Shown piece by piece: positions 22,675 through 41,894 of a DNA stretch of 64,000 nt. Origin of the DNA: a virus. Below the pieces are notes generated by a model. The model had not been told where the DNA came from. It did not search any database and saw only the letters and a list, made by a program, of their open reading frames with translations. The stretch's first letter is position 1. Each line of letters opens with the position of its first letter. The translations under genes and the position numbers were made by a program. The stretch lies in IMG/VR virus record IMGVR_UViG_3300035182_000466, positions 32,001-96,000 of that record; one strand, 5' to 3'.

Positions 22675-22737
22675 TAATAGATTTATAAGTAAGGGAGATG
22701 CCTTAACATGGCTCCATTATTTATAAAAGGAGAAAAA

Positions 22738-24983: not shown

Positions 24984-25349
24984 ATGAAAACCTATATACA
25001 TGGTAGTCAAATTTTAGATAAAACTATAGCAAAGGCATACATTGATACTATTACTCCAGGTAGTGCTTTAATAACTAAAGTGTTGCCAGGAGTAGGTGGT
25101 GTTACGCTTGAATCCTCAGGTATTGACGAAGGTACTGGAGATGTAACTATAAGTATCTCAGGATATGTTCATAATCAAATGTCTCCTTCCATTACTTGGA
25201 ATATATTTCATAACTTAGGTAAATTTCCTAGTGTATCTGTGGTAGATAGTGCAGGAACAATTGTATATGGTGATATAACTTATATAGATATAAATAATAT
25301 AAGCTTATCGTTTTCAGCCCCGTTTGCAGGTAAAGCGTACTTAAACTAA
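24984..25349 (+). CDS. Small virion/fibre protein
   Basis: H.Q..PS.TW.I.HNLG.FPSV.VVDS.G...G...Y.D.N...SFSAPFAGKAYLN motif common in phage fibre clusters. Confidence 0.7.
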   Translation: MKTYIHGSQILDKTIAKAYIDTITPGSALITKVLPGVGGVTLESSGIDEGTGDVTISISGYVHNQMSPSITWNIFHNLGKFPSVSVVDSAGTIVYGDITYIDINNISLSFSAPFAGKAYLN

Positions 25350-25361
25350 AGGAGAATTACA

Positions 25362-26780
25362 ATGCCAAAATTTTTAGCACCAGTAGATCTTAGTAGAAAT
25401 GAATTAAGAAACGCTGTAATTCAGAATCTAGCTTCTGCACCTAGTAGTCCAGTCGAGGGCCTAATTTATTTTGATACTGCTCAAAATAAGTTAGGCATTT
25501 ATTTAAGTGCAGCATGGCAGTATTTCGCTACTCTTTCAGAACTTTCGGAAAAAGCAAATTCTTCAGATGTATATACTAAGTCACAAATTGATACCTTTAT
25601 TTCCGGAGTTACTGGTGGAATGAATTATCAAGGTACTTGGAATGCAAACACTAACACTCCTACATTAGTTAGTGGTACCGGTACAAAAGGCTATTACTAT
25701 AAAGTGAGTTCTGCAGGCAATACAACTATTGATGGAAATAATAATTGGACAGCCGGAGATTTAATTGCGTATAATGGTACTACTTGGGATAAGATTGAAG
25801 GAGGAGCACCTGATGTTATTTCAGTAGCCGGTCGTATAGGTGCAGTTGTTTTAACTACTGCTGATGTTGCAGCTAGTCCTGATAAAAATTATGTTACAGA
25901 TGCACAAGCAACAGTAATTGGCAATACTTCTGGTACTAATACTGGTGATGAAACTACCGCTACTATCAAAACAAAATTGGGTATTACTACTCTTAGTGGT
26001 AGCAACACAGGTGATCAAACCATTACTCTTACAGGTGATGTTACCGGTACTGGTACAGGTTCATTTGCTACTACTATTGCAGCAGGTGCCGTAACCTTAG
26101 CTAAAATGGCAGATCTTGCCGCTAATTCTTTTATCGGTAACAATACTGGTTCTGCCACTACTCCTATTGCAATGACCGTTGCACAGGCAAAAACGTTGTT
26201 AGCAATAACAACATCTGATGTATCTGGTATCAATACAGTAGCAAAAGGTGGTACTGGTGTTGACACGTTGACTGGTTATGTAAAAGGTAATGGAACTAGT
26301 AACATGACTGCTAGTACAACAATTCCTATATCAGACTTAACTGGTACTCTTCCTGTAGCTAATGGTGGTACTGGTGCTACTACACTTACAGGATATTTAA
26401 AAGGCAATGGAACCTCAGCTGTAACCGCAGGAACTACAATTCCAGGTACAGATATTAGCGGGAATATCAGTGGTAATTCTGCAAACGTAACTGGAACAGT
26501 AGCTATAGCTAATGGTGGTACTGGAGCCACTACAGCAACAGCCGCACGTACTGCTTTAGGAGCTGTTGGTAAATATGCAGTGTCTATTGGTAACGGATCA
26601 TTAACTTCTTTTACCTTAGCACATTCATTAAATACTTTAGACGTAGCTGTAAGTATTTATGAAATATCTAGTGGTGCAAAAGTAGAAGTAGATATTAATC
26701 TAGTTGATGCTAACAACGTAACCGTAGCCTTTACTGTGGCTCCTACAACTAATCAGTATCGTGTAGTTATAGTAGGTTAA
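25362..26780 (+). CDS. Tail/appendage fibre protein
   Basis: YQGTWNANTNTP.L domain; repeated V(A)NGGTGATT; C-terminal H.LNT.DV.V...D.N.VTV.F domain related to the preceding gene. Confidence 0.75.
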   Translation: MPKFLAPVDLSRNELRNAVIQNLASAPSSPVEGLIYFDTAQNKLGIYLSAAWQYFATLSELSEKANSSDVYTKSQIDTFISGVTGGMNYQGTWNANTNTPTLVSGTGTKGYYYKVSSAGNTTIDGNNNWTAGDLIAYNGTTWDKIEGGAPDVISVAGRIGAVVLTTADVAASPDKNYVTDAQATVIGNTSGTNTGDETTATIKTKLGITTLSGSNTGDQTITLTGDVTGTGTGSFATTIAAGAVTLAKMADLAANSFIGNNTGSATTPIAMTVAQAKTLLAITTSDVSGINTVAKGGTGVDTLTGYVKGNGTSNMTASTTIPISDLTGTLPVANGGTGATTLTGYLKGNGTSAVTAGTTIPGTDISGNISGNSANVTGTVAIANGGTGATTATAARTALGAVGKYAVSIGNGSLTSFTLAHSLNTLDVAVSIYEISSGAKVEVDINLVDANNVTVAFTVAPTTNQYRVVIVG

Positions 26781-26791
26781 AACTTTAAATG

Positions 26792-26826
26792 AGGAAGAGT
26801 ATCAGGGAGAAAGAGGTACTCTTCCT
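26792..26826 (+). terminator. Intergenic hairpin
   Basis: AGGAAGAGTATC / GGTACTCTTCCT stem after the stop at 26780. Confidence 0.5.
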
Positions 26827-26841
26827 AATTAAGGATATAAA

Positions 26842-27318
26842 ATGGACGATAAACGGCAACGTACACTTAATGGTACACCTTATTCTATATCTGGTCATAA
26901 ACATGTTGTTTCAGATATAATTGATACAATAGCTCTTAGGGTTAAAAAGACAGCTAATCAAAGTATTAATGCAGCCACTAATACAAAAGTTATTTTCCCT
27001 GCGAAAGATTATGATATGGGTTCCTGTTGGGATACAACTTTAAGTAGATTTACTCCTCCTGCAAATCAGACTGTAGGTGTATATAGAGTAAGTTGTAGCT
27101 TAAAATTTGACTCAACAAAAGTAGCTAGGCTAATGATCTACATAAATGGATCTGAATATCAAAGACTTTGGGATAGTACGGTGTCTAATATCTGGATAGC
27201 AGGAACAACTGATATACAATTAAATACCAAAGACTATTTGGAAATATATGTATATACTTCTACTTCTGCTACAATATATGTAGCTAACTCAATATTAACT
27301 ATTTCTAGTATATTCTAA
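26842..27318 (+). CDS. C1q/TNF-like domain protein (fibre tip / receptor-binding candidate)
   Basis: KVIF...YD.G..WD.T.SRFT....GVY......IQLN..DYLEIYV pattern of C1q-like domains. Confidence 0.65.
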   Translation: MDDKRQRTLNGTPYSISGHKHVVSDIIDTIALRVKKTANQSINAATNTKVIFPAKDYDMGSCWDTTLSRFTPPANQTVGVYRVSCSLKFDSTKVARLMIYINGSEYQRLWDSTVSNIWIAGTTDIQLNTKDYLEIYVYTSTSATIYVANSILTISSIF

Positions 27319-27346
27319 TAAAATGTACTAATAGATGGTAGAAAGA

Positions 27347-27570
27347 ATGGATGATAAAAACAGTAAACACTTAATGGTGTACCTTATTTTACAAATAATT
27401 CATCAACATGGATATATAACAAATTCTGAAATTTATCTCCTTTCATGAATGACAACACTGATGTACAGTTAGACGCTAGTGATTATTTAGAGATTTAGAT
27501 CTACTGTAGTACTTCTTCTACAATATCAAATAGTAGAGATATAAACTTCTGTATATCTAGACTATATTAG
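27347..27570 (+). pseudogene. Decayed, internally deleted paralogue of the C1q-like gene 26842..27318
   Basis: The 5' part atggatgataaa...acacttaatggtgtaccttat aligns with the upstream gene's start but carries an indel and a stop. The 3' part reads TDVQLDASDYLEI*IYCSTSSTI versus TDIQLNTKDYLEIYVYTSTSATI. Confidence 0.75.
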
Positions 27571-27581
27571 GGAGACATTAT

Positions 27582-28343
27582 ATGTCTATTGATTACTTAT
27601 CTTGTGCTAAAATTCTTTATCCAGGCTTAACTGATACTGACTTAGTATTATCTAGTTTAGATGGAGAAACAATAACAATAACTTATTGGAATACTTCTTT
27701 TGGACCAGCTCCAACTTTATCTTATTTAGAAACTGCATATTTATCTGTAGTTAAAAATAGTAAGTTAAAAGAGTTTTCTGACTTAGTAGACTTAGAACTT
27801 AAAGAAGGCTCATTTGGATATACTACTCAAGGACTATCTTCTAATTTTAAAATGAATAGCTCTAGAGGAGACTTAGACAACCTAAAGAATCTTAATGATT
27901 ATCTTTGTTCAGCCATTCTTAACGTAATAAATAGCTCTGAGTGTCCTCCTCCCGGTACTATGGTTCGTGATTCTAGCACTGGTGCAGCAGGAACAATAGA
28001 AGCTATGATTCAACTTGGTGGAGACTTAGAACAGGGAACAGGAATATGCAATCTTTATTTATCAAAATGTTATGGCGTTTTTGATACAGGTAGTTTACTC
28101 ATACATACTACAGATATTCAGTTTTGTGAAGTAAACTCTGTTGTTAAAGAGAATGAAGCTAGTACTAAGGTACGTGATTTTAACAACCAGTTTCATGTAG
28201 TATCTCTAGCTGAACTTAATGCTATTATCCTGGAGCTTCGTGCTTATGGATTATGGCTGTTTAAACAAAAATGGGCTAAAGAAGTAGAGATAAATATGGC
28301 TACGAGTGTAGAACAAGTAGAAGCTATAAACTTTTGGACCTAA
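27582..28343 (+). CDS. Tail fibre assembly chaperone-like protein (XkdW-like N-terminus, DUF4376-like C-terminus) with an inserted domain
   Basis: LYP...I.YWN...PT...L N-terminus; RDFNNQFH.VS..EL...K...INMATSVEQVEAI.W C-terminus. Confidence 0.65.
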   Translation: MSIDYLSCAKILYPGLTDTDLVLSSLDGETITITYWNTSFGPAPTLSYLETAYLSVVKNSKLKEFSDLVDLELKEGSFGYTTQGLSSNFKMNSSRGDLDNLKNLNDYLCSAILNVINSSECPPPGTMVRDSSTGAAGTIEAMIQLGGDLEQGTGICNLYLSKCYGVFDTGSLLIHTTDIQFCEVNSVVKENEASTKVRDFNNQFHVVSLAELNAIILELRAYGLWLFKQKWAKEVEINMATSVEQVEAINFWT

Positions 28344-28346
28344 CCT

Positions 28347-29384
28347 ATGAAATATTTAATATTAGTATTATCAGTACTATTAGTTCCAACTTTTTGCTTT
28401 TCTGACTCTACTGTTAATCCTAAGCAACCTTATAAGGTTGCTACTATTATTTCATACACTTTAGAAAAATATTTAGATGAGAAGGAGTCCAGAGATAAAA
28501 CTCCTTTCATTAGGAATACTTTAAACAGTAAAGGAAATCTTAAATTTTGGTTTTTAAATTATTCTTTACTATTATCACAAGAAGAAATTAATCGTAGGAT
28601 AGACTTGTTGGATAAACAAGTAGAAAAATTTAATCCTGATATTATATTAGTTTATGGTGTAGTAGCTTTTGAACATTATTTAAGCTCTAAACTATATCCA
28701 AGAGGCTACACAAATACAATCTTTTATTGTATCCCTGATTATTATTATAGGGAATTAGCTTTAAAGTATCCTTATACCAAGTATAAAAAATTAATGAATG
28801 GTACTATCATAGATTATAACTTTAAGTTTATAAAAACCTTTTTAGCAGAGCGAGATGTTGTATATAAAAATATTTATGTTTTTAGAAATTCAAGATCTCC
28901 AGATAAAAATGTTATTTCAGATATAAAAGAGTATTTTCCTTCTGTAGAAGAGGTTATAGTTGATACAGATGAAGAATTAAAGTCCAAATTAGAATCTCTT
29001 CAAGATAAAGATGTTTCAATTTTAATATTTGTAGGAGCTTATCTTAAGTCAGTAAGTAATAACCGGTATATGATAGATTCTGAAATTGCAGATTTAATAA
29101 AACATTATAATAAGAAACATATAGAAATTTCTTTGTTGCGGAACTTAGCTAAATATGGAGTTTTATCATCCTATATTATTTTAAACACTAAAGATTTTTT
29201 ATTAGACCCTGAAGAAACTTGCAACAAGATATTTTATAGAAAGTATCATAAATTAGATATTCCTTTATCTGATCAAATAGGACATTTACAACCTTCATTA
29301 TTCTTAAATAATAACAGAGCTAAGGAATTAAAGCTAGATTTTATTTTAAATAAACCAGAGGGTATAGCAGATGTCTATTATTGA
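28347..29384 (+). CDS. Secreted/periplasmic substrate-binding-like protein (putative sensor)
   Basis: Signal peptide MKYLILVLSVLLVPTFCFS. KV..I.SY...PDIIL....AF...IF..I pattern recalls ABC_sub_bind-type periplasmic sensor domains. Confidence 0.5.
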   Translation: MKYLILVLSVLLVPTFCFSDSTVNPKQPYKVATIISYTLEKYLDEKESRDKTPFIRNTLNSKGNLKFWFLNYSLLLSQEEINRRIDLLDKQVEKFNPDIILVYGVVAFEHYLSSKLYPRGYTNTIFYCIPDYYYRELALKYPYTKYKKLMNGTIIDYNFKFIKTFLAERDVVYKNIYVFRNSRSPDKNVISDIKEYFPSVEEVIVDTDEELKSKLESLQDKDVSILIFVGAYLKSVSNNRYMIDSEIADLIKHYNKKHIEISLLRNLAKYGVLSSYIILNTKDFLLDPEETCNKIFYRKYHKLDIPLSDQIGHLQPSLFLNNNRAKELKLDFILNKPEGIADVYY

Positions 29385-29664
29385 TAAGATAAAATCCTTG
29401 GACAGAGTTTATATTATTTTAATAATAATGTCTTTATTATTAGCAGCATCTATTTTTTCTAACATAGAAAAATCTTTCTTTGTACCAAAAGAAGTAGACT
29501 CTGCTGTTTCTGAAAATCTTGGCAGTTATAAACTAGGAAAAGTGTGTTATGATAAACAAGGCTTAACTGTTTGCGAAGATATCGACTTAAAAGTATATAA
29601 AATTACCATGTATTCAGAAGGAGATAATTCTAATCTTCCTATTTTATATATAAAACTTAAGTAG
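29371..29664 (+). CDS. Small single-pass membrane protein
   Basis: Hydrophobic stretch VYIILIIMSLLLAASIF; overlaps the upstream gene by 14 nt. Confidence 0.6.
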   Translation: MSIIDKIKSLDRVYIILIIMSLLLAASIFSNIEKSFFVPKEVDSAVSENLGSYKLGKVCYDKQGLTVCEDIDLKVYKITMYSEGDNSNLPILYIKLK

Positions 29665-29673
29665 GAGTAATTT

Positions 29674-30345
29674 ATGGATGAACTTTTAAAAGTACTCCAA
29701 AGACTAGTTGGATCTGATACTGCTATTCTTGCAGTCTCTATAATAGGTATTTTATGGTATAAAGATCAGATAAAACCTAGTCTTGAAAAGAAAAATGAAT
29801 ATGAAACTACCTTAATGGAGAAAACTAAGATATTACTTACAAAAGACGATTTAATTTCGCTTAAAATAGGTAATACTGAAGAGATTGTAGAAAAAATAGC
29901 TGACAAGATTAAAGACTTACTTGAAGACTATCAACAAGATATAAAAGAAGCTAAAATAAAATCTGAAGAGATAAAAGCTATTTTAAAGGGTCCTTTAAAA
30001 GATGATATTCAAAAGATAAAATCAATCTTAGAATCAATGCAACTAAATATCTCTGAACATGATGTAAGAGTAGATTTTTCAGAAAGAATAATAGAAGATG
30101 TAAAAGAAACCTTATCTATTATTTATAGTCTTGTTGATAAGATTTTATCTCAGTTAGAGACTAAAGGTTTAGTAGATAAAATAGATAGAGTAGACTTTAA
30201 CAAATCTAACATCTCATCAAAAGATATAATGAATATATTGGATATGATGGGTAGAATAGCTCCTAGAGAACGAAAAAGAGATTCTAAATTAAGTAGATTA
30301 ACTAGAAGTAGTAGAGACTTTTCAGGAGAAGAAGACTATGAATAG
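29674..30345 (+). CDS. Membrane-anchored coiled-coil protein
   Basis: RBS AGGAG; TM AILAVSIIGILWY followed by a long heptad-rich helical region. Confidence 0.65.
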   Translation: MDELLKVLQRLVGSDTAILAVSIIGILWYKDQIKPSLEKKNEYETTLMEKTKILLTKDDLISLKIGNTEEIVEKIADKIKDLLEDYQQDIKEAKIKSEEIKAILKGPLKDDIQKIKSILESMQLNISEHDVRVDFSERIIEDVKETLSIIYSLVDKILSQLETKGLVDKIDRVDFNKSNISSKDIMNILDMMGRIAPRERKRDSKLSRLTRSSRDFSGEEDYE

Positions 30346-31225
30346 ATTTAGTTTAGAGTTAGCTCGATTAATCTTAGATCTAGAAATGCAGGCAGATAAA
30401 CTTGTAAATGAATCTGTGGTAAATAAGATGTTATGTTGTTGTAGATCTAGACTGCTTAATAACTATATATCTACTTGTCAACTTATGGCTATAAAATTTG
30501 TAGGAAAAATTATAAAATTTAAAGAAGACTTTGATGTACAAAAGACAACAGTAAAAGATTTACGTCATTGGTTTTATTTAGAGAACTATTCTAAGATGTA
30601 CATTAAAAATGCTGTTTCAAATAAAATGATTCTTTTGTTACACCTCTTACAGTCTAAATCAGATAATAGATTTTTTGACCGATTTGAAGTTATGTTTGAT
30701 GAAATAGTACATAGTTTCCAAGGAGAAGAAGAAGATTATTTTAAAAATAGTATATCAAAGATTTTTGATGAATTACAAGACTGGATGGATGACCATATAC
30801 TAGGATTATTAAGTTTAAAGATAAATTGCATGGCTATTGATAATAAGATTCTTGAAGATTATAAAGAGCTTCTAGGATTTAACTCAGAAACAGATGAACA
30901 TAATCTGTATCAAAATTTAGAAGGAATGTGTGGATCAAAACATCTATATGACACTGGAGAAATATTGCACTTGTATTTAACAGAAGAAAATATACTAGAC
31001 GCTATGCCTTGTGAATATACTACTTTAATAACTAAGTATCATGAAAATCCAAATAAAATAGAGCTTATACTTGATTTCCAGTTGTTAGAAAAACCTATAA
31101 TATGCGATGGAACTCATTTATCAGTACTCGAGAGAAATTTGAATAAATTTGGTTCAGTTAAAATAGTAAATCATGAACTTATTACTTTTACTAAGGATTT
31201 TAAACATAAATACTTATTAGCATAG
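30338..31225 (+). CDS. Hypothetical cytoplasmic protein
   Basis: 295-aa ORF overlapping the upstream gene by 8 nt; no motif recognised. Confidence 0.6.
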   Translation: MNRFSLELARLILDLEMQADKLVNESVVNKMLCCCRSRLLNNYISTCQLMAIKFVGKIIKFKEDFDVQKTTVKDLRHWFYLENYSKMYIKNAVSNKMILLLHLLQSKSDNRFFDRFEVMFDEIVHSFQGEEEDYFKNSISKIFDELQDWMDDHILGLLSLKINCMAIDNKILEDYKELLGFNSETDEHNLYQNLEGMCGSKHLYDTGEILHLYLTEENILDAMPCEYTTLITKYHENPNKIELILDFQLLEKPIICDGTHLSVLERNLNKFGSVKIVNHELITFTKDFKHKYLLA

Positions 31226-31236
31226 AAGGTACATAG

Positions 31237-33153
31237 ATGATATTAACTAACAAAAAAGTAGAACCAGAGGAGTATGAGATAAACACTCCGTGTAAATATT
31301 TTGGGGTAAAAATAATCTTAATATTTAGCATGACTTCAATCCTTTGGATATTTAGTATGCAAGCTCTAGGCTTGGTTAATACTTATACTTTTTTAATCTA
31401 CATTTTAGTTTATACAGTACTTTTGTACCTATTAATTTATCAGGACATTAATTACGTAGTTCAAGCTAAAGAAAAACTATCTGTAATTACTACAAATCTA
31501 ATAGATTCAAAACGCGCTTTTTATCTTGTATTTAATAATAGCCTAGTAGGTGTATGCTTAATAGAAAATAAAAAGATAATCAAGGCTAATGAAAAATTCT
31601 TAACTTTATTTAAGATAAAAGAAGAAGAAATATCCCAATTTTCTTGTTACAACATTTTTAGTTCAAATAAAGAATATAAAGATTTATGTTTTATTTGTTC
31701 TAATCTTCCTGTTGATACTACGAAGACTTTAGTTAGAGAAATAAAATTATTAAGTTCTGATGGATCATATTTTTGGGCTAAAGTTAGTTCTAAAGCACTA
31801 ACTAAAGATCCAATGTTGAAAATTGCTTTAATTATACAAGACATAACGGAGTTTAAAGAGTCTGAAGATAAACTTAATAGGATTGCATTTAAAGACCCTT
31901 TAACCAATTTAAACAATAGAGTAAGTTTTAACTTAAAAATTCAAAAGCTTATAACTGAAGAAGAAGTAGATAAGTTTGGTGTGTTATTCTTGGATCTTGA
32001 TTATTTTAAGGTTATAAATGATACCTTAGGACACACTATTGGTGATAAACTTCTAGTTAAAGTTGGTAAAAGAATACAAGAGTGTTTAGAACATGATGAC
32101 TTTTTTGCTAGGTTAGGTGGAGATGAATTTGTTATTCTTATCACCCAACCTTTTTCTTATGGAAAATGCAGAGAAATTTGTAATTGTATTTTAAAAATGG
32201 TAAAAAGACCATTTCAAATAGAAACACATGAAGTATATATAGGTACATCTATTGGTGTAGCAATATATCCTACTGATGGAACTACTAAAGAAGAACTAAT
32301 TAAATGTGCAGATATAGCTATGTATAAAGCAAAAGAACTATCTAGAAATAATGCCTGTTTCTATGACAAGTCTATGAATAAAAAATCAGAAGAGCACTTA
32401 TTTATAGAAACGAATTTAAGACAGGCTATGGACAGAAATGAATTATTCATACAATATCAACCCATTCTTGATTTAGAAACTAATACTATAACCTGTGTAG
32501 AAGCGTTAGTTAGATGGAAGTCTGACAAATACGGTATTATACCACCAAATAGTTTTATACCAATAGCTGAAAACACTGGGTTAATTTTATCTATCGGAGA
32601 GTGGGTGTTAGATAGAGTTTGCAAAGATCTAAATAACCTTTTGGAATATGGATTATCGGTAGTAATGTCTGTAAATCTAAGTCCTAGACAACTTCAACAT
32701 ACTGAAATAGTTAAGTCTATAAAGCAAATACTAAATGAAAATAAAATAGATCCAAAATTGATACGTCTAGAACTTACAGAAACTAGTCTAATGTGTCAAA
32801 AAGATATAATAAATTTGTTAAAATCTTTGAGGTCTTTGGGTGTAGATTTAGCTATAGATGATTTTGGAACTGGTTATAGTTCATTATCTTATTTAAAGTA
32901 TCTTCCAGTATCTACCTTAAAGATTGATAAGTCTTTTATTGATGGAATTCCAGTTGATGTAGACGATACCAGTTTAGTTAAAGGTATAATTGGTTTAGGA
33001 AAAAACTTAGGACTTAAAGTAATTGCAGAAGGTATTGAAAGTCAAAGTCAAAGAACGTGTCTTGAACGATGTGGCTGTGATTCAATACAAGGATACTTAA
33101 TAAGTAGACCAGTTGATTTTGAGGTATTAAAAAACTTTCTTCTAAAAGACTAA
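31237..33153 (+). CDS. Membrane-bound PAS-GGDEF-EAL diguanylate cyclase/phosphodiesterase
   Basis: Two TM helices; PAS (N.KF...F...DGS.FW...IIQDITE.K); DPLTNL.NR, DLDYFK.INDTLGH..GD, RLGGDEF (32116-32130); YQP...EALVRW (32500), SVNLS, ELTE, DDFGTGYSSL, KID, AEGIE, QGY. Confidence 0.97.
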   Translation: MILTNKKVEPEEYEINTPCKYFGVKIILIFSMTSILWIFSMQALGLVNTYTFLIYILVYTVLLYLLIYQDINYVVQAKEKLSVITTNLIDSKRAFYLVFNNSLVGVCLIENKKIIKANEKFLTLFKIKEEEISQFSCYNIFSSNKEYKDLCFICSNLPVDTTKTLVREIKLLSSDGSYFWAKVSSKALTKDPMLKIALIIQDITEFKESEDKLNRIAFKDPLTNLNNRVSFNLKIQKLITEEEVDKFGVLFLDLDYFKVINDTLGHTIGDKLLVKVGKRIQECLEHDDFFARLGGDEFVILITQPFSYGKCREICNCILKMVKRPFQIETHEVYIGTSIGVAIYPTDGTTKEELIKCADIAMYKAKELSRNNACFYDKSMNKKSEEHLFIETNLRQAMDRNELFIQYQPILDLETNTITCVEALVRWKSDKYGIIPPNSFIPIAENTGLILSIGEWVLDRVCKDLNNLLEYGLSVVMSVNLSPRQLQHTEIVKSIKQILNENKIDPKLIRLELTETSLMCQKDIINLLKSLRSLGVDLAIDDFGTGYSSLSYLKYLPVSTLKIDKSFIDGIPVDVDDTSLVKGIIGLGKNLGLKVIAEGIESQSQRTCLERCGCDSIQGYLISRPVDFEVLKNFLLKD

Positions 33154-33163
33154 TGAGGGCTGC

Positions 33164-34105
33164 ATGAAAGCAATCTATATAGAAAGTTTACGTCCAGAAG
33201 AAGTTGTTTCTTTTTCTTTATATCTACGTTATGGTAGTAAATATGTTTTATACAAAGCTGAAGGAAATGTCTTTACACAATCAGATAAAGATAGATTAAT
33301 AGAAAATGATACTACACACCTCTTTATTGATGATTTTAAAATATTAGACTATAACACTTATATTAACGAAAATATCTCAAAGATTTTATCTGATACAAAC
33401 ATGGATTCTAAAGTAAAAGGGCAGTTGTTGTATCAAACTTCAGGCTTTTATTTTGAAGAATCATTTTTAGGACACTCAGTTGAAGATGTAGATAGGTATG
33501 AACATCTTGTAGAACACATTATAACTTTTTGGTTATCTGATCCTAATATTGTGGTAAATCTTGCTAATCTTATTAAACATACTAATTATGAATATGGACA
33601 TTCACTTCAAGTTGCTGCATTATCTGTGATACTTGCGGAGGAGTCTTACACTTTATTAAAAGAAGAAGTGCTTGATATAGGTGTAGGAGCTATACTTCAT
33701 GATCTTGGAAAAATGTTTATTCCATCTTCAATTTTAGATAAGCCTACTATTCTTACTGATGCAGAATTAAAGATTATACAAGAGCATCCTATAAAAACAT
33801 ATAATTTATTAAAAGAAAAAGTTTCTCTGGATAAGACGGCTTTAATGATCTTATTGGATCATCATGAGTATTTAGATGGAACAGGTTATCCAAATAAGAA
33901 GAAAGATCAAGATATAGGTAGGAACGCTAGAATAGTTACTATAGCTGATATTTATTGTGCCTTAACTTCCGATCGACCGTATAGACCTGCCTTTACAGAG
34001 AAACAAGCACTATATATAATGCAGCAAGAATTTAAAGGAAAACTAGACTTAAAAATCTTTGAAACGTTGAAAGCGTATGTAAACAAAAAACTAAATAATC
34101 TGTAG
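33164..34105 (+). CDS. HD-GYP cyclic-dinucleotide phosphodiesterase
   Basis: HS..V, LHDLGK (33698), EHP, HHEYLDGTGYP (GYP at 33884), ADIY.ALTSDRPYR. Confidence 0.95.
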   Translation: MKAIYIESLRPEEVVSFSLYLRYGSKYVLYKAEGNVFTQSDKDRLIENDTTHLFIDDFKILDYNTYINENISKILSDTNMDSKVKGQLLYQTSGFYFEESFLGHSVEDVDRYEHLVEHIITFWLSDPNIVVNLANLIKHTNYEYGHSLQVAALSVILAEESYTLLKEEVLDIGVGAILHDLGKMFIPSSILDKPTILTDAELKIIQEHPIKTYNLLKEKVSLDKTALMILLDHHEYLDGTGYPNKKKDQDIGRNARIVTIADIYCALTSDRPYRPAFTEKQALYIMQQEFKGKLDLKIFETLKAYVNKKLNNL

Positions 34106-34133
34106 TAAACCTCTCACTGAAAGGAATCTATCA

Positions 34134-35405
34134 ATGCTTAAGGTATCAATTTTTACTCCCACTCATAATCCTGTACATTTACTAGACATTTGGACAGACT
34201 TAAAAGATCAGCCTTTTTATGAATGGATAATCGTAGCAAATGGAGAAGAGCTAAAGAAACAAAGAGATGAGTTAGGAGAACACTGGATTTCTGGTCTTTT
34301 TCCTATGTCTGAAGATGAGAGAGTGAAAGTTCTATGGTTTGATGGCCCTGCTTACGTAGGGGCTTTAAAGAAGTTTGCTTGTGATAATTGTATCGGAGAC
34401 ATTTATCTTGAATTAGACCACGATGATATTTTACTTGAAGGTGCAGTAGAAAAAGTAATAGTTGCTTTTGAAAATAATCCTGAGGTAGGATTCGTTTATT
34501 CTAACTGTGCTAACTTTAGAGGAGATTTCGAGAAAGCTGAAAGATATGGTGAAGGTAATGGTTGGAGATATAGACCTTTTATTTATAAAGGTAAAGAATT
34601 GGAGGAAACCTTATCTTTTAAAGATACGCCAGCTTCAGTATCCCGTATTTGGTTTTGTCCAAATCATTTAAGAGCATGGAGAGCAGATGTTTATAAAGAA
34701 GTTGGTGGGCATAATCCTAACATGAGAGTATTAGATGATCAAGAGCTTATTAGTAGAACTTATATTCATTCACCTTTTTATCATATTGATGAGTGTTTAT
34801 ACTTGTACAGAATTGGTGAAAAGAATACATGGTTAGAGCATAATAAAGAAATTCAAGATAATGTATTACCTATTCATTCTAGATTCATCCAAGACATAGC
34901 TGTTTCTTGGAGTAAACGGAACAGTTTGAAAGCAATAGACTTAGGTGGTCGTTTTCATAATAAAGAAGGTATAATAAGTGTAGATCTTAAAGACGCTGAA
35001 GTAAATTGTGATCTAAATGAAACCTGGCCTTTTGAAGATAACTCCGTTGGATGCATAATTGCAAATGATATTGTGGAGCATCTTAAAAATCCTATTCATT
35101 TTATGAAAGAAGCTCATAGAGTATTAGTAGATAATGGAATGTTACTGATCTCTGTTCCTAGCACTGATGGACGTGGAGCTTTTCAAGATCCAACTCATAT
35201 AAGTTTTTGGAATGAAAATAGCTTTTGGTATTATACTCGTGCAACACAAGCTCGTTATATTGATACTCCAGTTCGTTTCCAAGAAGTATACTTAACAACT
35301 TATTTTCCAAATCAATGGTATAAAGATAATAATATCTGTTATACTCTGGCACATTTGTGTGCTTTAAAATCTAACTTTCGTAGACCAGGTCTTATCCTTA
35401 TTTAA
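34134..35405 (+). CDS. GT2 glycosyltransferase fused to a C-terminal SAM methyltransferase domain
   Basis: VSIFTPT, EWIIV, LDHDD (DxD), GFVYS, VGG; C-terminal IDLGG...DIVEH...RVL...G...ISVP...DPTH. Confidence 0.88.
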   Translation: MLKVSIFTPTHNPVHLLDIWTDLKDQPFYEWIIVANGEELKKQRDELGEHWISGLFPMSEDERVKVLWFDGPAYVGALKKFACDNCIGDIYLELDHDDILLEGAVEKVIVAFENNPEVGFVYSNCANFRGDFEKAERYGEGNGWRYRPFIYKGKELEETLSFKDTPASVSRIWFCPNHLRAWRADVYKEVGGHNPNMRVLDDQELISRTYIHSPFYHIDECLYLYRIGEKNTWLEHNKEIQDNVLPIHSRFIQDIAVSWSKRNSLKAIDLGGRFHNKEGIISVDLKDAEVNCDLNETWPFEDNSVGCIIANDIVEHLKNPIHFMKEAHRVLVDNGMLLISVPSTDGRGAFQDPTHISFWNENSFWYYTRATQARYIDTPVRFQEVYLTTYFPNQWYKDNNICYTLAHLCALKSNFRRPGLILI

Positions 35406-35433
35406 CTAATATTTTGGCATGAGGTGTTGCAGA

Positions 35434-35862
35434 ATGAAAATAACTAAATTTAAAGTTCAATCTGGTGCAAGAGGTAGATCTATTGATACTCCCATAAGAT
35501 TTCCTTCTGCAACACAGCCAAGCCTATTAACTGCACCAGATACTAGAATAACAATAAAAGATGCTTCTGGTGAGATAGACCTAGATGAGAAGACCAAACT
35601 AGAAGACGCCAAAAAATCTATAAGATTCGGTGGTAAAGTGTTATCTAATAGTTCAAGTCCTATTCAAATAACAACTAAAGGTAGCATGGGTTATGACGGA
35701 CCTTTCTTTTTTATAGCAGTATTTCCTGATGGTAAACGTTACAAGTATTGGTTTGATAGTCAATTCAAAAGAGATGATGCTGTAAAAGCTAGATTTAATA
35801 TTGGAAAGTTTGTAAATCTGGTTAAGAATACTTCGTATCAGTATGAAAGGTTACAGCAATGA
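35434..35862 (+). CDS. Hypothetical protein (possible internal head protein)
   Basis: Start reassigned to 35434 (GAGGTG upstream); begins MKITKFKVQS. Confidence 0.55.
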   Translation: MKITKFKVQSGARGRSIDTPIRFPSATQPSLLTAPDTRITIKDASGEIDLDEKTKLEDAKKSIRFGGKVLSNSSSPIQITTKGSMGYDGPFFFIAVFPDGKRYKYWFDSQFKRDDAVKARFNIGKFVNLVKNTSYQYERLQQ

Positions 35863-36209
35863 AGATAAAAAAAGTAACCCTCTCAGATAGTAGACTGTCT
35901 TATAATGAGTCTGGAGAGTCTACTACTTTCATGATAAGAGACAAACATTATCTTGAGGAAGACGAAGATAAAGATACAGTATTATCTATGTATGAAGACC
36001 AATGTAGAAAGCAACCAAAAGATATAGACATAGAGTATGTAAAAAATGATGTTTCTAAGAATGATATTATCATAGAGACAAAAAAATCTGACTGTAAAAA
36101 ATATGATAATAAGTTTAAAGGTTTTAAAAGTAAAGAAAGTAATATTTCATGGAGAACAAATGATGTACCTACAGAATCTTTAGGTCCTAAAAGCAAAATA
36201 TTACTATAA
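35859..36209 (+). CDS. Hypothetical protein (possible internal head protein)
   Basis: ATGA overlap with the upstream gene; begins MKIKKVTLS. Confidence 0.55.
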   Translation: MKIKKVTLSDSRLSYNESGESTTFMIRDKHYLEEDEDKDTVLSMYEDQCRKQPKDIDIEYVKNDVSKNDIIIETKKSDCKKYDNKFKGFKSKESNISWRTNDVPTESLGPKSKILL

Positions 36210-36219
36210 GGATATAACA

Positions 36220-36522
36220 ATGGATCTTCAAATTAAAGTTGCTCTTATTACTGGGTTCTTTACACTATCTTCAGCTATAATAACAGCTACGATTGCAGCA
36301 CTTATAAGTAGACGTTGGTTAAACCAAGAAAAACTAAAAGAACAATTAGAGACAGCTAAAAAAGATATAGAGTTTCTCTTATTACTAGAAGATAAATTAT
36401 ATGAAGACCTACAAGTATTACAAAATATGAAAGGTTCACCTAAACTAAAATATAGAGCCTTAATGTTTAGACGTGGTTATAAATTTAGTGGAAAATTTAC
36501 TTTGAGTAGGGTGAGAACATGA
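36220..36522 (+). CDS. Small membrane protein with a coiled coil
   Basis: N-terminal TM (VALITGFFTLSSAIITATIAALI) followed by heptads. Confidence 0.6.
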   Translation: MDLQIKVALITGFFTLSSAIITATIAALISRRWLNQEKLKEQLETAKKDIEFLLLLEDKLYEDLQVLQNMKGSPKLKYRALMFRRGYKFSGKFTLSRVRT

Positions 36523-38120
36523 AATGGACCGAAAAAGTAATAGAGTATAAGAAAGAACAATATCCAAAAGACGAAGTCTTAAGGTATATAAAATCTATCT
36601 TTACTAAAAGAAAAATAAAATGGGAACAACGTCATCTACAACAATTTGAGACTGCTTGGAAAACTAAGGTTCAAATAAACCCAACTGTAGAAGATATTGT
36701 TCCTGAAGTTGATTTACCTGCGTCCATGCTAAAGCTAACACCACTACAAAAGAAACAACTTATAAACGTCTTTAAAAACTTAAATAATAATGAGTTAAAA
36801 CGAAGAAAGAAGTTATTAGATATAGCTTTGAATCTAGCAGTTCATAGAAACAAAAAGAAAGATGTAGATAATTTTTCAGTTATAAGTGATATTATTTTTG
36901 AATCTCGTATGGTTAAAAAACAGAAGATAGAATCTGCAGGTTATAATAATAAGCCTAGTATAAAGTGCAAACGAGTTGATATTTTAAAAGTATCTAAATC
37001 TGAATTAGATGAACTACGTGCATCCATTTTAAAAGACGGTTATATTTTTGTAAAAGATGTAGATGATTTTTATGTTTATAAAGTGTCATGCGATGGTGAG
37101 AATGGTATAGGTGTAGGACCAGTGGAAGGAAAAGTTGTACTTTCTAACTTAAAGAAATGTGACTCTTTCCATACAGACGATGTTAATGTAACTTTTGATG
37201 ATAACTATGACAAGGTATTACGGGATTCTCTTAAAAGAAGAAAGAAAGAATTATCTGGAATATCTCCTATCCTGTATCATTTAACAGAACCACATAAATT
37301 GTTATCTATGTTAGAAGATAACAGAATCCATATGACTTCTAATATAGGAACAAGATCAGATATAATTGGAAATAAGAAAAAGTTTAAACCTTATTATTTT
37401 TCAATGAGTAGAGTAAAATATGGTGGCTTTAATCGTTCTTTTGGTAAAGACACTAGTGTTGCAAATTTAGTACTTGATGGACAAAAATTATCATATAAAT
37501 ATGAAGGTATGCCAGTAGATTATTGGGGTCCAGAATATAGAAAAGGAAATGATTTAGATCAAAGACTAAGAAATGATGAGAATGAAGATAGGATAATTTC
37601 GCCAGATCCATATATAGAACCTTTAAACAAATATGTAAAAGAAATTCATCTTTTCGCAGATTCAAAAGCAAGAGAGTATTATAAAACTGGTGAATATACC
37701 GAAGAAGGTTATGAAAAACATCGCCAGATACAAAAAATTGCAGCATTAGCTAAATCGTTAAAAATACCATTCTATGTTTATATAGATTATGAACCATTTA
37801 AACTATTAGATAAAAGGAGAGCATTACCTAACGAAAGAATAATTAGATCTACAGAATTGGATGAATTACTTGAAGTATTCACTAAAAAGTATGAAGATTT
37901 ATCTGATTCTGCTAGAGAACGTGTATATAGATGCTACATTAGTCCAGATGAGAATAGATCAATAATTGGTAATGTTTTCCATAATGCTAAATTTGGCTCA
38001 AAGTCTGAAAAGTTGCAAATAGACGAAGTTATTGTCTATATGAGAAAGAATAAACTTCATTCAATAACAGATTTAGTATCATTTTTAGGTAAGATTTATA
38101 AAGAAAACAAAGATCTGTAG
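36519..38120 (+). CDS. Multidomain protein with a putative ADP-ribosyltransferase-like domain
   Basis: LYHLT ... FSMSR ... LVLD ... ENEDRI spacing matches the ART H/R - S - ExE strand signature. Confidence 0.45.
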   Translation: MKWTEKVIEYKKEQYPKDEVLRYIKSIFTKRKIKWEQRHLQQFETAWKTKVQINPTVEDIVPEVDLPASMLKLTPLQKKQLINVFKNLNNNELKRRKKLLDIALNLAVHRNKKKDVDNFSVISDIIFESRMVKKQKIESAGYNNKPSIKCKRVDILKVSKSELDELRASILKDGYIFVKDVDDFYVYKVSCDGENGIGVGPVEGKVVLSNLKKCDSFHTDDVNVTFDDNYDKVLRDSLKRRKKELSGISPILYHLTEPHKLLSMLEDNRIHMTSNIGTRSDIIGNKKKFKPYYFSMSRVKYGGFNRSFGKDTSVANLVLDGQKLSYKYEGMPVDYWGPEYRKGNDLDQRLRNDENEDRIISPDPYIEPLNKYVKEIHLFADSKAREYYKTGEYTEEGYEKHRQIQKIAALAKSLKIPFYVYIDYEPFKLLDKRRALPNERIIRSTELDELLEVFTKKYEDLSDSARERVYRCYISPDENRSIIGNVFHNAKFGSKSEKLQIDEVIVYMRKNKLHSITDLVSFLGKIYKENKDL

Positions 38121-38248
38121 TATAATGGATTTTGAAGAATGTAATTTATATTAACGATATAATCAATATGGAAAAAATAAAAAAACTCTTTAAACTGTTA
38201 GAAGTAGCAGTAAACACTAGAAGTGTTATCAAACGAAAGGAGAATCAA

Positions 38249-39973
38249 ATGGCAAGAAAGCTAAGATTCAAAGGTGTAGCAACCGTAGGTAAGAACCTTA
38301 AAACTGCTACTGCGGCATTTCTTAAAGTCATTATCGGTAATAACAGAAAGATGATTGTATCATCTGACCGTTCCGTTTATGCTGTTAATGCAATGCCTTC
38401 AGTAAAGTTTTGGGATCCAAAAAAAGGTGTAAGTCATGCAGGAGTTTTAGCCAAAGACTTTAATTTAACATTAGCGTCTGATGGTAATCCTGGTGATACA
38501 TTAAAAGCCTATACGGTTGTATGCTCCGGTTGTAAAGAAGTTATTTTGACTGAGTCTAAACTGAAACATTGTATCCTTTGTGCTTCTGAAATTGAAGACT
38601 CTGAATATGAAGATGTTGAGTTAGACTTACCTCCTACTGAAGAAATTGAAGATGCTACTAATGGGGATTTCCTTGAAGATGATGATGATGATGAAGAAAT
38701 AGAAGACGAAGATGGTGATGATCTTGAAGATTCAGATGATGACGAAGAAATAGAAGACGAAGATGGTGATGATCTTGAAGATTCAGATGATGACGATGAT
38801 GCAGAAGTAGAAGAAGATGGGGATTTCCTTGAAGATGATGATGATGAAGAAGTAGAAGAAGATGGGGATTTCCTTGAAGATGATGACGAAGATGACATCG
38901 AAGTAGGCGATGAACTTGAAGATGATGACGACTCAGACGTTGAAAATACCGATGAAGATGACCTAGAATTAGGTGATGATCTTGAAGATTCAGATGATAA
39001 TGATGAAGAAGTAGAAGACGAAGATGGTGATGAACTTGAAGATGAAGATTGCGTTGATGATGCTGACTGTGAAGATCAAATCGGTGATGAGATTGATGAA
39101 GAAGAAGAGCAAGTTGATGAAGATGATGAGCAGGGCGACCTGTTTATTGAAGATGATGGCTCAATAAATATCGATCTTGTTGATGGTGCTGAGTTAGAAG
39201 ACACTGATGAAACAGACGTAGAGTATTCTGCTTCTATCAAAGGTGAAAAGCGCTGGATTGTAAATGTTAATGGACTACCTGTAGCTCATTTAACTGAGAC
39301 AGCATCCGGTACAAACAAAGACATCTTCCATACCGAGAAATTCGGTAAAGTAATTAGTCAAGTAGTTGCTTCCGAAGGTTTAAAAGGTCTGAAGAAACTT
39401 GGATTCCAGTCAATCATAATTGCAGCTCCTATTAAGAGTCTTATTAACACTGCAGTACAGACTGAGATTTCAAAGCATGAGACTGAGGTAAGTAAGCAAC
39501 TCAAGTCTTTAGTTTCTGATTTCCAAACAACCTTAGGAATGGCTTCGGTTGGTATTAATCGTGGCTTCTTCTCTGATGCGGTTAACCCATTAAAAGTAAG
39601 AATGTGGGAAGAACTATCATCTTTAGGTATTCCACAACCACACAGACTTATTGACAGAGTATTTAAAGAAACCGCAGAAGATTTCTGTAAGATTCTGATT
39701 GAAAAAGCTTCAGAGCTTTATGCAAAGCCTGTTGAAGTTCGTGCAGAGCTTTCAAAAGCTATTATAGGAAGTAATTTCATTTCTGCTTCAGAAGAAGAAG
39801 ATGAAGAAGAAGTTGAAACTGTAGATGATAATGGATTGGAAGAATCAATTGCAAATAGAATCGAAGCTTCTTCAATTCCATTTGGAACTCGTTCAATAGT
39901 TGAAGCTGCGTCCACAACCGTTAAGGAAGATGCATTTACATCCAAATTAAAGACTGCTTTCAGCAGCTTATAA
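38249..39973 (+). CDS. Putative prohead core/scaffold protein with a Zn ribbon and a long acidic tract
   Basis: Start reassigned to 38249 (AAGGAG). CSGC...CILC; ~170-aa D/E tract; lies just upstream of the head genes. Confidence 0.65.
   Translation: MARKLRFKGVATVGKNLKTATAAFLKVIIGNNRKMIVSSDRSVYAVNAMPSVKFWDPKKGVSHAGVLAKDFNLTLASDGNPGDTLKAYTVVCSGCKEVILTESKLKHCILCASEIEDSEYEDVELDLPPTEEIEDATNGDFLEDDDDDEEIEDEDGDDLEDSDDDEEIEDEDGDDLEDSDDDDDAEVEEDGDFLEDDDDEEVEEDGDFLEDDDEDDIEVGDELEDDDDSDVENTDEDDLELGDDLEDSDDNDEEVEDEDGDELEDEDCVDDADCEDQIGDEIDEEEEQVDEDDEQGDLFIEDDGSINIDLVDGAELEDTDETDVEYSASIKGEKRWIVNVNGLPVAHLTETASGTNKDIFHTEKFGKVISQVVASEGLKGLKKLGFQSIIIAAPIKSLINTAVQTEISKHETEVSKQLKSLVSDFQTTLGMASVGINRGFFSDAVNPLKVRMWEELSSLGIPQPHRLIDRVFKETAEDFCKILIEKASELYAKPVEVRAELSKAIIGSNFISASEEEDEEEVETVDDNGLEESIANRIEASSIPFGTRSIVEAASTTVKEDAFTSKLKTAFSSL
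38693..39050 (+). repeat. Acidic tandem repeats (51-bp and 45-bp units) in the scaffold gene
   Basis: EEIEDEDGDDLEDSDDD occurs as an exact 51-bp tandem pair (38693, 38744); EVEEDGDFLEDDD is repeated (38804, 38849); further degenerate copies follow. Confidence 0.85.
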
Positions 39974-40000
39974 TCTAATTCAAGAAAGGAATTTAAAACA

Positions 40001-40735
40001 ATGCTTAAACTTCAAAAAACCCGTATTATGAAATCCTTTCATCGTAACGTAGCTACTGGCTATGATATTAAGAATGAAGGGGTTGCACTCGTTTATGTAA
40101 ATGAGAATGGTGAAGGTAAAGTTAAACCTTCATCTGGAGCACCTAATGAGAAGTTTGCTGGTGTTTCTTTATCTCAAGTACAAGTTCCTACCCAACTTAC
40201 TGGTGTAGAAAACTTCCTAGTTGCTGGTACTACCACAATTAAATTAGCTCGTACTAATTTAGTAGCTGGTCAGATCACTGTTAAATCTGGTAATACTACT
40301 TTAGTACTTGCTGCCAATGCCGCTGCTGGTCAATTCGCTGTTAATACTTTAATTGGCGAAGTTACCATTGACTCTTCAAACGCTGGTACTGCTATTTCTC
40401 CAGTAGAAATTTCTGTTGTTTATAAGTATGTACCTTCTGTTCAAGAAGCAATCAATGCTCAAGGCTATGGCCCAGCAGGTGGCATCCATTCAGCTTCTTA
40501 CTATTCAGTAGTTGGTGTTATTACTGAAGGCGACGTCTCTACTGATCAATTCGATGTAACCGATGATTGGTCTGCAACTACTGGTCCTGTTTATCTTGGT
40601 CCTAATGGTTTATTTACTCTTAAAGCTGGTGGTACTGAGCTAAAGGGTTGTAACATTATTGGAGCTCCCTCTGCTCCTAATGGCTCCTTCTTTGGTGCTT
40701 TTATCACCCTTAACTTTGGTCCTTACAGCGGCTAA
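40001..40735 (+). CDS. Head structural / decoration protein
   Basis: Lies between the scaffold and major capsid genes; strong RBS and codon usage like highly expressed genes; beta-rich. Confidence 0.6.
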   Translation: MLKLQKTRIMKSFHRNVATGYDIKNEGVALVYVNENGEGKVKPSSGAPNEKFAGVSLSQVQVPTQLTGVENFLVAGTTTIKLARTNLVAGQITVKSGNTTLVLAANAAAGQFAVNTLIGEVTIDSSNAGTAISPVEISVVYKYVPSVQEAINAQGYGPAGGIHSASYYSVVGVITEGDVSTDQFDVTDDWSATTGPVYLGPNGLFTLKAGGTELKGCNIIGAPSAPNGSFFGAFITLNFGPYSG

Positions 40736-40793
40736 TCGCATAATAAACTAAACTACTACTTTAAAAATAAACAGGAAAAGGAGAATTAAACAA

Positions 40794-41894
40794 ATGTCTA
40801 AGGCAAAACACAATCCTTATGCTGGTGTAAAGTTTACACTCGCTTCTGGCGCTGAAATTACTGATCTTCGTCTCGGTAAATCCGCTGAGCCTGCATTAGC
40901 AAGTAATGGCGAAATTAATGCACATAGCCAAAAGGAACTTCTCTCTAAGATTTCCGAACTGGTTACTGCTTCTTCTAAAGGTGAGATTGTTCGCCAAGCT
41001 CCTGAGAAAGATCGTCGTCTTCATCGTGAAGTTTTAGCTGCTGCTTTTACTGATAAGTCTGGTTCTAAGTGGAATCAGTTAGGTGTTGCACTAGCTGCCA
41101 AGATTGAAGAAGCTGCTTACCGTGAAGGTTTCATGCGTAACCTGATGATTGAAGAGCAACTTAATCAAGGTGAAATCCCACGTTGTCGTATGCGTGTAAA
41201 TAACGTAGTTGCTATGATTGCAACTTCTGTTGCTGATGTTGTACCTCAGCTTGTTCGTGAGCGTATTTTTTATCCACCTGAGTTTTATATCAATGCAAAC
41301 GTAGAAGTTGAAAACCGTGACATTGATCAAATCTCTTCTGACATTCTGGATGAAAAGTACACCGAAGGTTTACAGAACATCATGGTTCAAGAAGACCTGG
41401 TTTGGAAGCGTCTTGCAGATGGTACTGTTGGTTCCGCTAACAACATTACTTATATTGCTGGTCAGCTCACTCCTACAACTTTGAGCACCTTACGTAACAA
41501 CGTAGCTCATTGGAAAATTCCTGCAACTACTTGTTTATTAGCTCAAGATTACTGGAATGACATCGTTGGAAACAGCGAATTCCAATCAATGCTTGATCCT
41601 GTCAGCAAGTATGACCTGGTTCTGAATGGTGAACTCGGTATTATCTTAGGCCTCCGTGTTGTTACAGATGGCTACCGTGCACCTGAGCTTCAGGTTCTTA
41701 ATCCAGGTGAGATTTATGTTGTTGGTGCAGCAGCTAACCATGGTCAGTATACAACCCGTGGTGGTGTAGAGTCAACCCCAATTGATGGTGCATTACAAAG
41801 CCGTAACAGCAAAGGTTGGTTCCTTGCAGAGAACATCAGCTCCATTATCACCAATGCTCGTTCCGTAGCAAAAGGTATGAAAATTGGTATGTAA
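40794..41894 (+). CDS. Major capsid protein
   Basis: Size, position, strong RBS, biased codons (cgt, ggt, aac) and a following terminator; HK97-like features (G.LG.I.G..V.TD, L..GEIYV). Confidence 0.85.
   Translation: MSKAKHNPYAGVKFTLASGAEITDLRLGKSAEPALASNGEINAHSQKELLSKISELVTASSKGEIVRQAPEKDRRLHREVLAAAFTDKSGSKWNQLGVALAAKIEEAAYREGFMRNLMIEEQLNQGEIPRCRMRVNNVVAMIATSVADVVPQLVRERIFYPPEFYINANVEVENRDIDQISSDILDEKYTEGLQNIMVQEDLVWKRLADGTVGSANNITYIAGQLTPTTLSTLRNNVAHWKIPATTCLLAQDYWNDIVGNSEFQSMLDPVSKYDLVLNGELGIILGLRVVTDGYRAPELQVLNPGEIYVVGAAANHGQYTTRGGVESTPIDGALQSRNSKGWFLAENISSIITNARSVAKGMKIGM

Follow-up and report, generated by a model that had tools for sequence, protein, structure and literature searches.

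Cyclic di-GMP (c-di-GMP) acts as a switch between biofilm and surface polysaccharides on the one hand and motility on the other, and these same traits also decide phage adsorption and spread. Enzymes of cyclic dinucleotide metabolism have been recorded in phages on several occasions. A diguanylate cyclase was presented as an auxiliary gene of a Mu-like virus from the Cariaco Basin (PMC7785012), phage G carries an annotated cyclase named 'DgcQ' (PMC12484599), and HD-GYP proteins were found across jumbo phage groups, where a role against nucleotide-based defence was predicted (Iyer et al. 2021, PMC7824862). The locus described here lies in a window of 64,000 nucleotides, bases 32001-96000 of the IMG/VR record IMGVR_UViG_3300035182_000466 (hereafter G000; 170 kb, rated ~63% complete), which belongs to a PaBG-like jumbo myovirus of the virulent type. 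It comprises seven consecutive open reading frames (ORFs) at 28347-35405, which are a mosaic of four units turned neighbours (ORF1-4, ORF5, ORF6 and ORF7), where only ORF5 and ORF6 concern cyclic dinucleotides. As in the Cariaco virus and phage G, a GGDEF enzyme is encoded in a phage genome and its function is read from homology; those cyclases are lone genes, whereas the present locus combines cyclase, EAL and HD-GYP domains at one interior site of a jumbo phage genome. A first-pass annotation of this DNA, made from the sequence alone, knew of no characterised lytic-phage system with this arrangement, which in view of the three publications above was too strong a claim. The seven genes are the following:

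28347..29384, + strand: ORF1, secreted periplasmic binding-fold protein resembling PF04392 (ABC_sub_bind) in the ESM Atlas, with a signal-peptide-like N-terminus
29371..29664, + strand: ORF2, single-pass membrane protein of 97 amino acids (aa), hydrophobic helix at residues 7-25
29674..30345, + strand: ORF3, single-pass membrane protein of 223 aa, hydrophobic helix at residues 11-29 and a long, helical, charged C-terminal part
30338..31225, + strand: ORF4, soluble Cys-rich protein of 295 aa, last of a four-gene module, from a small family without known domain
31237..33153, + strand: ORF5, membrane-anchored PAS-GGDEF-EAL protein of 638 aa (Pfam PAS_9, GGDEF, EAL)
33164..34105, + strand: ORF6, putative HD-GYP phosphodiesterase with a Bd1817-like N-terminal domain (HD_5, PF13487, 2.6e-30, 105.8 bits)
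34134..35405, + strand: ORF7, soluble fusion of a family 2 glycosyltransferase (GT2) and a methyltransferase (Pfam Glycos_transf_2 and Methyltransf_11)

Most of these identities had already been proposed in the first-pass annotation, and they hold well: Pfam agrees with it for ORF5, ORF6 and ORF7, two hydrophobic helices accompany the domains of ORF5, and one such helix is present in each of ORF2 and ORF3. Moreover, the genes are phage-borne, and the GGDEF, EAL and HD-GYP catalytic motifs are intact.

ORF5 and ORF6, the predicted cyclic dinucleotide enzymes

ORF5 is predicted to be a bifunctional diguanylate cyclase/phosphodiesterase of the MorA/PA0575 type. Its GGDEF domain (PF00990) is recognised at 2.5e-46, with 157.8 bits against a cut-off of 23.8, and its EAL domain (PF00563) at 6.7e-70 and 235.6 bits, whereas the tandem as a whole aligns end to end with PA0575 (PDB 5m3c, 1.4e-106) and MorA (PDB 4rnh, 1.8e-103). 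The cyclase site, with DLDYFKVINDTLGHTIGD at 253 and GGDEF at 294-298, keeps the metal-binding Asp and the guanine-binding Asn/Asp. The RxxD inhibitory site (I-site), common but optional in such enzymes, is absent five residues before GGDEF, where EHDD is found instead. A complete EAL set follows, made of EALVR (422), VNLS (479), ELTE (512), the loop 6 sequence DDFGTGYS (541), KIDKSF (562), EGIE (598) and IQGY (617). As in MorA and PA0575, a tandem GGDEF-EAL with all its motifs is present, and ORF5 is also membrane-anchored with a PAS input; it differs from them in being phage-encoded and known from sequence, much shorter, with one PAS domain and a two-helix anchor, and without RxxD.

The motifs of ORF6 are likewise intact (GHSLQV, LHDLGK, QEHP, HHE, GTGYP and IADIYCAL, which supply the H, HD, H, HHE, GYP and D ligands). 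Among solved structures, the best match is 5z7c (V-cGAP3, a 3'3'-cyclic GMP-AMP or 3'3'-cGAMP enzyme, 3e-26), near-equal to 4mcw (PmGH, a c-di-GMP enzyme, 3e-24), and residues 4-262 are covered by 3tm8 (Bd1817). ORF6 thus shares with these proteins an HD_5 domain bearing the full motif set, and its N-terminal domain aligns with that of Bd1817, from which it differs in its intact GYP. Unlike all three, it is phage-borne, predicted from sequence, and conserved in its lineage beside a tail-fibre cluster.

The closest relative of G000 is G001, a complete genome of 295 kb with a capsid protein 88% identical. It encodes a full-length ORF6 orthologue (42% identity, motifs retained) located 3.4 kb downstream of homologues of the fibre cluster of the window, including that of its 253-aa gene; no other genome was returned by an IMG/VR scan with an HD-GYP alignment. 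ORF5 has no counterpart in G001, where a soluble PAS-GGDEF protein with GGDEF and RxxD (RAED) motifs is found (contig L019, 3178-4128), unlinked to the HD-GYP gene; neither an EAL domain nor an ORF4 homologue was found in this genome. Having both an HD-GYP orthologue and a PAS-GGDEF protein in G001, enzymes of the c-di-GMP type appear to be retained across the lineage. The region around the G001 PAS-GGDEF gene has no counterpart in the 170 kb of G000, so that the latter may carry more such genes in its missing part. Judged from this comparison, HD-GYP is the older, lineage-conserved part, GGDEF-EAL would have been added later in G000, and both ORF1-4 and ORF5 would have been gained between the fibre cluster and the HD-GYP gene, in a slot between fibre genes and head module that varies between relatives.

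How common the pair may be was approached through its GGDEF-EAL half. A GGDEF-EAL family exists in PHROGs (phrog_11823), and some 320 IMG/VR stretches (~320) encode relatives. Among the best 80 of these loci, a contig end is no more than 10 kb away in 67, and just one also bears an HD-GYP gene:

L070, 423-4534: a DUF4118-PAS-GGDEF-EAL protein beside a PAS-GAF-HD-GYP protein, located terminally on a 12-kb fragment of a temperate phage with terminase, S24 repressor and serine recombinase

Being at a contig end, the L070 pair may be host flank or cargo. An interior GGDEF-EAL gene also occurs on four large IMG/VR contigs, but these are not kin of G000, as they have no PaBG-type capsid and one sheath among them. 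In the GenBank phage collection, most GGDEF-EAL or HD-GYP matches were not counted as phage examples either, since they fall on bacterial contigs deposited as phage or on faecal fragments labelled 'Bacteriophage sp.' that carry no annotation. Single-sequence scans of IMG/VR with ORF5 gave no useful relatives. Altogether, a GGDEF-EAL gene adjoining an HD-GYP gene inside a jumbo phage appears to be uncommon, and no description of it was found in the literature searched.

Possible roles in the infected cell

The reading we favour, with a probability of about 0.5, is that ORF5 and ORF6 would clamp or lower c-di-GMP in the infected cell under a signal read by the PAS domain. The phage would make an inner-membrane PAS-GGDEF-EAL enzyme together with a soluble HD-GYP phosphodiesterase, and these would override the host c-di-GMP pool. 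As the phage has no PilZ receptor of its own (no PilZ domain was found in G000 or G001), the response would be left to host effectors. With two degrading domains against one cyclase domain devoid of feedback inhibition, the net effect would be a clamp on, or a lowering of, the messenger, which would suppress the production of matrix and surface polysaccharides and favour the release and spread of the progeny. What we infer under this reading is the activity of the enzymes, its net direction, its late timing and the biological pay-off.

Several points weigh against such a role. The net direction of a GGDEF-EAL tandem is not predictable, nor can the substrate of ORF6 be read from its sequence, the best solved match being 3'3'-cGAMP-specific. 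The reading also presupposes a host that uses c-di-GMP. In addition, the GGDEF proteins of G000 and G001 are not orthologous (26% identity, different architecture), only two phages of the lineage were found and, with G000 ~63% complete, other relevant genes may be missing.

A serious rival, possible if somewhat unlikely, is counter-defence. HD-GYP, and possibly EAL, would destroy signals of the cyclic oligonucleotide-based anti-phage signalling system (CBASS) type, either 3'3'-cGAMP or the c-di-GMP read by bacterial STING, whereby abortive-infection effectors would stay off. Bacterial relatives of full length (~323 aa, 33-37% identity to ORF6) were found in genomes of Desulfuromonadaceae and Geobacteraceae, a group that uses cGAMP signalling, and the best solved match of ORF6, V-cGAP3, is a cGAMP-specific phosphodiesterase. 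In line with this idea, it is HD-GYP that the lineage conserves, with a GGDEF partner that changes, and the one comparable gene of a cultured phage, from the Microcystis jumbo phage MaAM05, bears the annotation of a cGAMP phosphodiesterase. Iyer et al. (2021, PMC7824862) had predicted exactly such a role for the HD-GYPs of jumbo phages. On the other hand, PmGH scores nearly as well as V-cGAP3, the HD-GYP gene sits within the structural-gene block in both phages and not among early genes, and both phages keep an intact cyclase domain, needless for pure signal degradation. In this regard, ORF6 resembles the HD-GYPs of that survey in being encoded by a jumbo phage, but differs from them in adjoining an intact GGDEF-EAL gene, and a GGDEF protein is also present in the related phage, which points to c-di-GMP turnover and not to signal destruction alone.

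It is doubtful, on the other hand, that the c-di-GMP genes are mere passengers taken from a host without benefit to the phage. Such an origin would fit the nearest ORF5 homologues, all of them bacterial with at most 47% identity, and the variable slot between fibre genes and head module. However, the composition at third codon positions is fully phage-like, all catalytic motifs have been retained, and the HD-GYP protein remains full-length with its motifs in a relative diverged to 42% identity.

Composition of the seven-gene block

The first four genes are a phage module of their own, which occurs in four other distinct contexts (L007, L012, L014/L015 and L016), mostly T4-like phages. Homologues of ORF1-4 in the same order were found in L007, followed by convergent small genes and no GGDEF gene, and the four-gene layout also in L012, L014/L015 and L016 and partly in L101/L102 and one further contig; ORF3 homologues keep their place in L007, L014/L015 and L016. 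At the T4-like loci, the module lies between the tail-tube gene and a tail-tube paralogue, after which come a TnsA-like gene, gp2 and Portal_T4. The located modules are:

window, 28347-31225
L012, 6102-8909
L015, 8026-10870
L016, 8092-10918
L101, 237-2285

No GGDEF, EAL, HD-GYP or GT2-methyltransferase homologue was found at the other loci, where flanks of up to 10 kb on each side were checked as far as the contig allowed.

The first-pass annotation saw in ORF1 a secreted, substrate-binding-like protein; the fold and the signal-peptide-like N-terminus bear this out, but not a Pfam match to ABC_sub_bind. All ten of its ten best ESM Atlas matches belong to PF04392 (feature score 0.93; template-modelling or TM score of 0.67-0.71 over ~295 residues), whereas neither a Pfam hidden Markov model (HMM) at E <= 0.01 nor, with an ORF1 profile, any PDB sequence at E <= 10 was matched. 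ORF1 is therefore like PF04392 proteins in its signal peptide and predicted fold, and unlike them in its lack of an HMM-level match and of ABC permease or ATPase genes nearby, none being present in the window block or at the other module loci. It is also unlike PF04392 proteins in having three phage-specific conserved partners and a predicted docking on a 97-aa membrane protein. This docking comes from a complex prediction with mature ORF1 and residues 36-97 of ORF2, which scored 0.75 (best control, 0.02), with runs agreeing in at least 97% of contacts and a partner predicted local distance difference test (pLDDT) of at least 73. Of 80 solved complexes 58 attain the 0.75 mark, as do 2 of 110 mismatched pairs, counts that hold only roughly here because alignments made in this analysis were used. 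The interface falls on ORF2 residues 57-70, in the Cys59-Cys68 loop, and this C-terminal part has two cysteines, C59 and C68, that do not vary among six homologues. The model supports, but does not show, that ORF1 binds ORF2.

No Pfam family was recognised in ORF2, ORF3 or ORF4. A profile search gathered 51 representatives of the ORF4 family, with conserved C33, C35, C164, C198, Y234 and H235, and in one relative (P0136) a response-regulator receiver domain replaces the C-terminal part. Less was obtained by other routes: AlphaFold2 models from two-sequence alignments were poor (pLDDT 38 for ORF1 and 50 for ORF4), single-sequence IMG/VR scans with ORF1 and ORF4 gave no useful relatives, the sequences in the broad ORF4 alignment differed too much for pattern scans to be of use, and a metagenome scan with a narrower one returned nothing. 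Altogether, the module is probably a trans-envelope sensing or envelope-acting device. A spanin pair formed by ORF2 and ORF3 was considered and rejected, as both lack a lipobox, the adjacent genes include no endolysin or holin, and the binder and ORF4 always belong to the module.

If such a sensor stood functionally beside a lineage toolkit of fibre-linked HD-GYP and changeable GGDEF-type enzymes, an external or periplasmic cue could be read to set c-di-GMP during virion production, and the phage could, for instance, time matrix shut-down and release. We regard this extension as unlikely.

The last gene, ORF7, is a common phage backbone gene outside the c-di-GMP set. It is 60% identical to a G001 gene in the matching position ahead of the head module, right after a 1,744-aa ORF and before the same small genes, the ATPase, the structural protein and the capsid gene, and none of ORF1-6 lies between that long ORF and the ORF7 homologue. 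Moreover, its family was found at 40 IMG/VR loci, and at none of them were c-di-GMP genes nearby; many of these loci belong to contigs 90-375 kb long. A link to the membrane-embedded, processive, c-di-GMP-controlled glycan synthases of the NfrB/BcsA type (NfrB being named in the first-pass annotation) had to be abandoned: the protein is soluble, with no hydrophobic segment and the methyltransferase as its sole extra domain, and without a PilZ domain in either phage the NfrB analogy fails. A second fusion, of a methyltransferase with a GT9 heptosyltransferase-like domain, occurs among virion genes at 22708-24267 of the window, and the targets of both fusions may be virion proteins or glycans of the host surface.

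The seven ORFs are tightly packed on the + strand, with successive gaps, counted from the preceding 253-aa gene, of 3, -14, 9, -8, 11, 10 and 28 nt, and no gap above 28 nt occurs from 27582 through 40735. The coordinates and spacing of the earlier annotation are thereby confirmed, as is its statement that no terminator intervenes: no intergenic terminator-like site was found between 27.5 and 36.5 kb, and the sole site on the + strand within the cassette is inside ORF1. In the region, six terminator-like sites were counted, at chance level (4.8 +/- 2.2), and the first convincing hairpin with a T-run comes after the capsid gene, near 41.9 kb. The packed block is headed by an ORF-free gap of 263 nt (window 27319-27581), possibly a promoter region; k-mer searches of the larger intergenic gaps recovered a ribosome-binding-site motif as the only common one, and no shared promoter motif. 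It is from position alone, in a packed block among virion genes, that we infer late expression.

That all seven genes form one sensor, synthase and degrader circuit, as the first-pass annotation proposed, is improbable and largely refuted by distribution; in the form considered here, with an output added, binder and membrane proteins would signal to GGDEF-EAL and the GT2 protein would make a regulated glycan. The packed or overlapping genes without an intergenic terminator would suit it, as would the membrane anchor that ORF5 shares with ORF2 and ORF3, the use of PF04392-fold domains as sensor domains of histidine kinases, and the receiver domain on one ORF4 relative. But ORF1-4 and ORF7 both recur without c-di-GMP genes, and the observation named beforehand as telling against the circuit, the upstream four genes lacking GGDEF and HD-GYP neighbours elsewhere, is what was found in the four other contexts. 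In G001, HD-GYP and GGDEF are far apart and no ORF4 homologue accompanies them. Furthermore, the two N-terminal hydrophobic helices of ORF5 are joined by a connector of about three residues, which leaves no periplasmic domain to receive the binder, and ORF7 has no membrane segment, nor is a PilZ domain present.

The phage, its flanking genes and the meaning of the locus

The assignment of G000 to the PaBG-like phages follows its structural genes. Its capsid protein shows ~46% identity with its counterparts in Pseudomonas phage PaBG and in the Erwinia pEa_SNUABM jumbo phages, and the order ATPase, structural protein, major capsid protein and sheath is the same as in PaBG. The + strand carries every sizeable ORF of the window, and PHROG and Pfam searches recognised tail fibres, the major head protein and the tail sheath there. 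No tyrosine integrase was found in G000 or in G001. Around the cassette, the neighbouring genes are these:

24984-25349: 121-aa gene 5' of the fibre gene, with weak HNH-endonuclease-like PHROG matches
25362..27318, + strand: upstream tail-fibre cluster, with genes for a fibre-like protein (472 aa) and a virion-protein-like product (158 aa; PHROG tail/virion-structural matches)
27582..28343, + strand: 253-aa gene of the fibre cluster, first of the packed block
35419-38120: four unannotated genes between ORF7 and the first recognisable head-module gene
38132..41894, + strand: downstream head module, with a PaBG gp082-like ATPase, a virion structural protein and the major head protein (PHROG; synteny with PaBG gp082-gp080)

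Homologues of the 472-aa and 158-aa genes (61% and 48% identity) lie upstream of HD-GYP in G001, where a 34%-identical homologue of the 253-aa gene comes after the same fibre genes. The latter had been labelled a tail-fibre chaperone gene placed 3 nt before the cassette; the distance is right, but the label finds no backing in Pfam or PHROG, neither of which gave a match. Virion genes do flank the cassette on both sides, as was also claimed, with the tail fibre 5' and the head genes and tail sheath (PHROG/Pfam) 3', although four unannotated genes follow ORF7 first. Proteins of the head module are 47-88% identical to their G001 counterparts. As separate observations, the G001 counterpart of the 121-aa HNH-like gene consists of two adjoining ORFs of 82 and 121 aa (L017, 1643-2257), and a single ORF of 4,341 aa occupies 1132-14157 of the window.

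The exact ORF5 protein is present on nine contigs, and the gene order across both cassette junctions is identical on contigs from at least three independent samples (JGI 3300035181, JGI 3300035661 and Logan SRR11727985) with 99.7-99.99% DNA identity, which supports the contiguity that the first-pass annotation wished to see confirmed. The total GC content falls to 0.27-0.28 over 28-33 kb, whereas at third codon positions (GC3) the cassette genes have values of 0.17-0.20, no different from the mean of 0.189 +/- 0.029 for the genome; the low total GC thus reflects amino-acid composition and not foreign DNA, and the dip was dropped as a mark of recent transfer. An assembly chimera or host contamination that fused bacterial with phage DNA, for which this dip would speak, is very unlikely, as both junctions recur in those three further samples, GC3 matches the phage mean, and phage genes on the same strand stand on both sides at gaps of no more than 28 nt. 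Samples differ by indels and repeats where the gp082-like ATPase gene encodes its acidic, Asp/Glu-rich stretch (~38661-38857), and there contig L004 deviates from an otherwise 99.7% identical sequence.

ORF1-4 constitute a lead in their own right, as a recurrent four-gene module inside the structural regions of unrelated phages. As for ORF5 and ORF6, the pair is short and simple enough for a test in a laboratory strain. If the predicted activities hold, a phage with one maker and two breakers of c-di-GMP would be a direct case of a virus seizing the lifestyle switch of its host.

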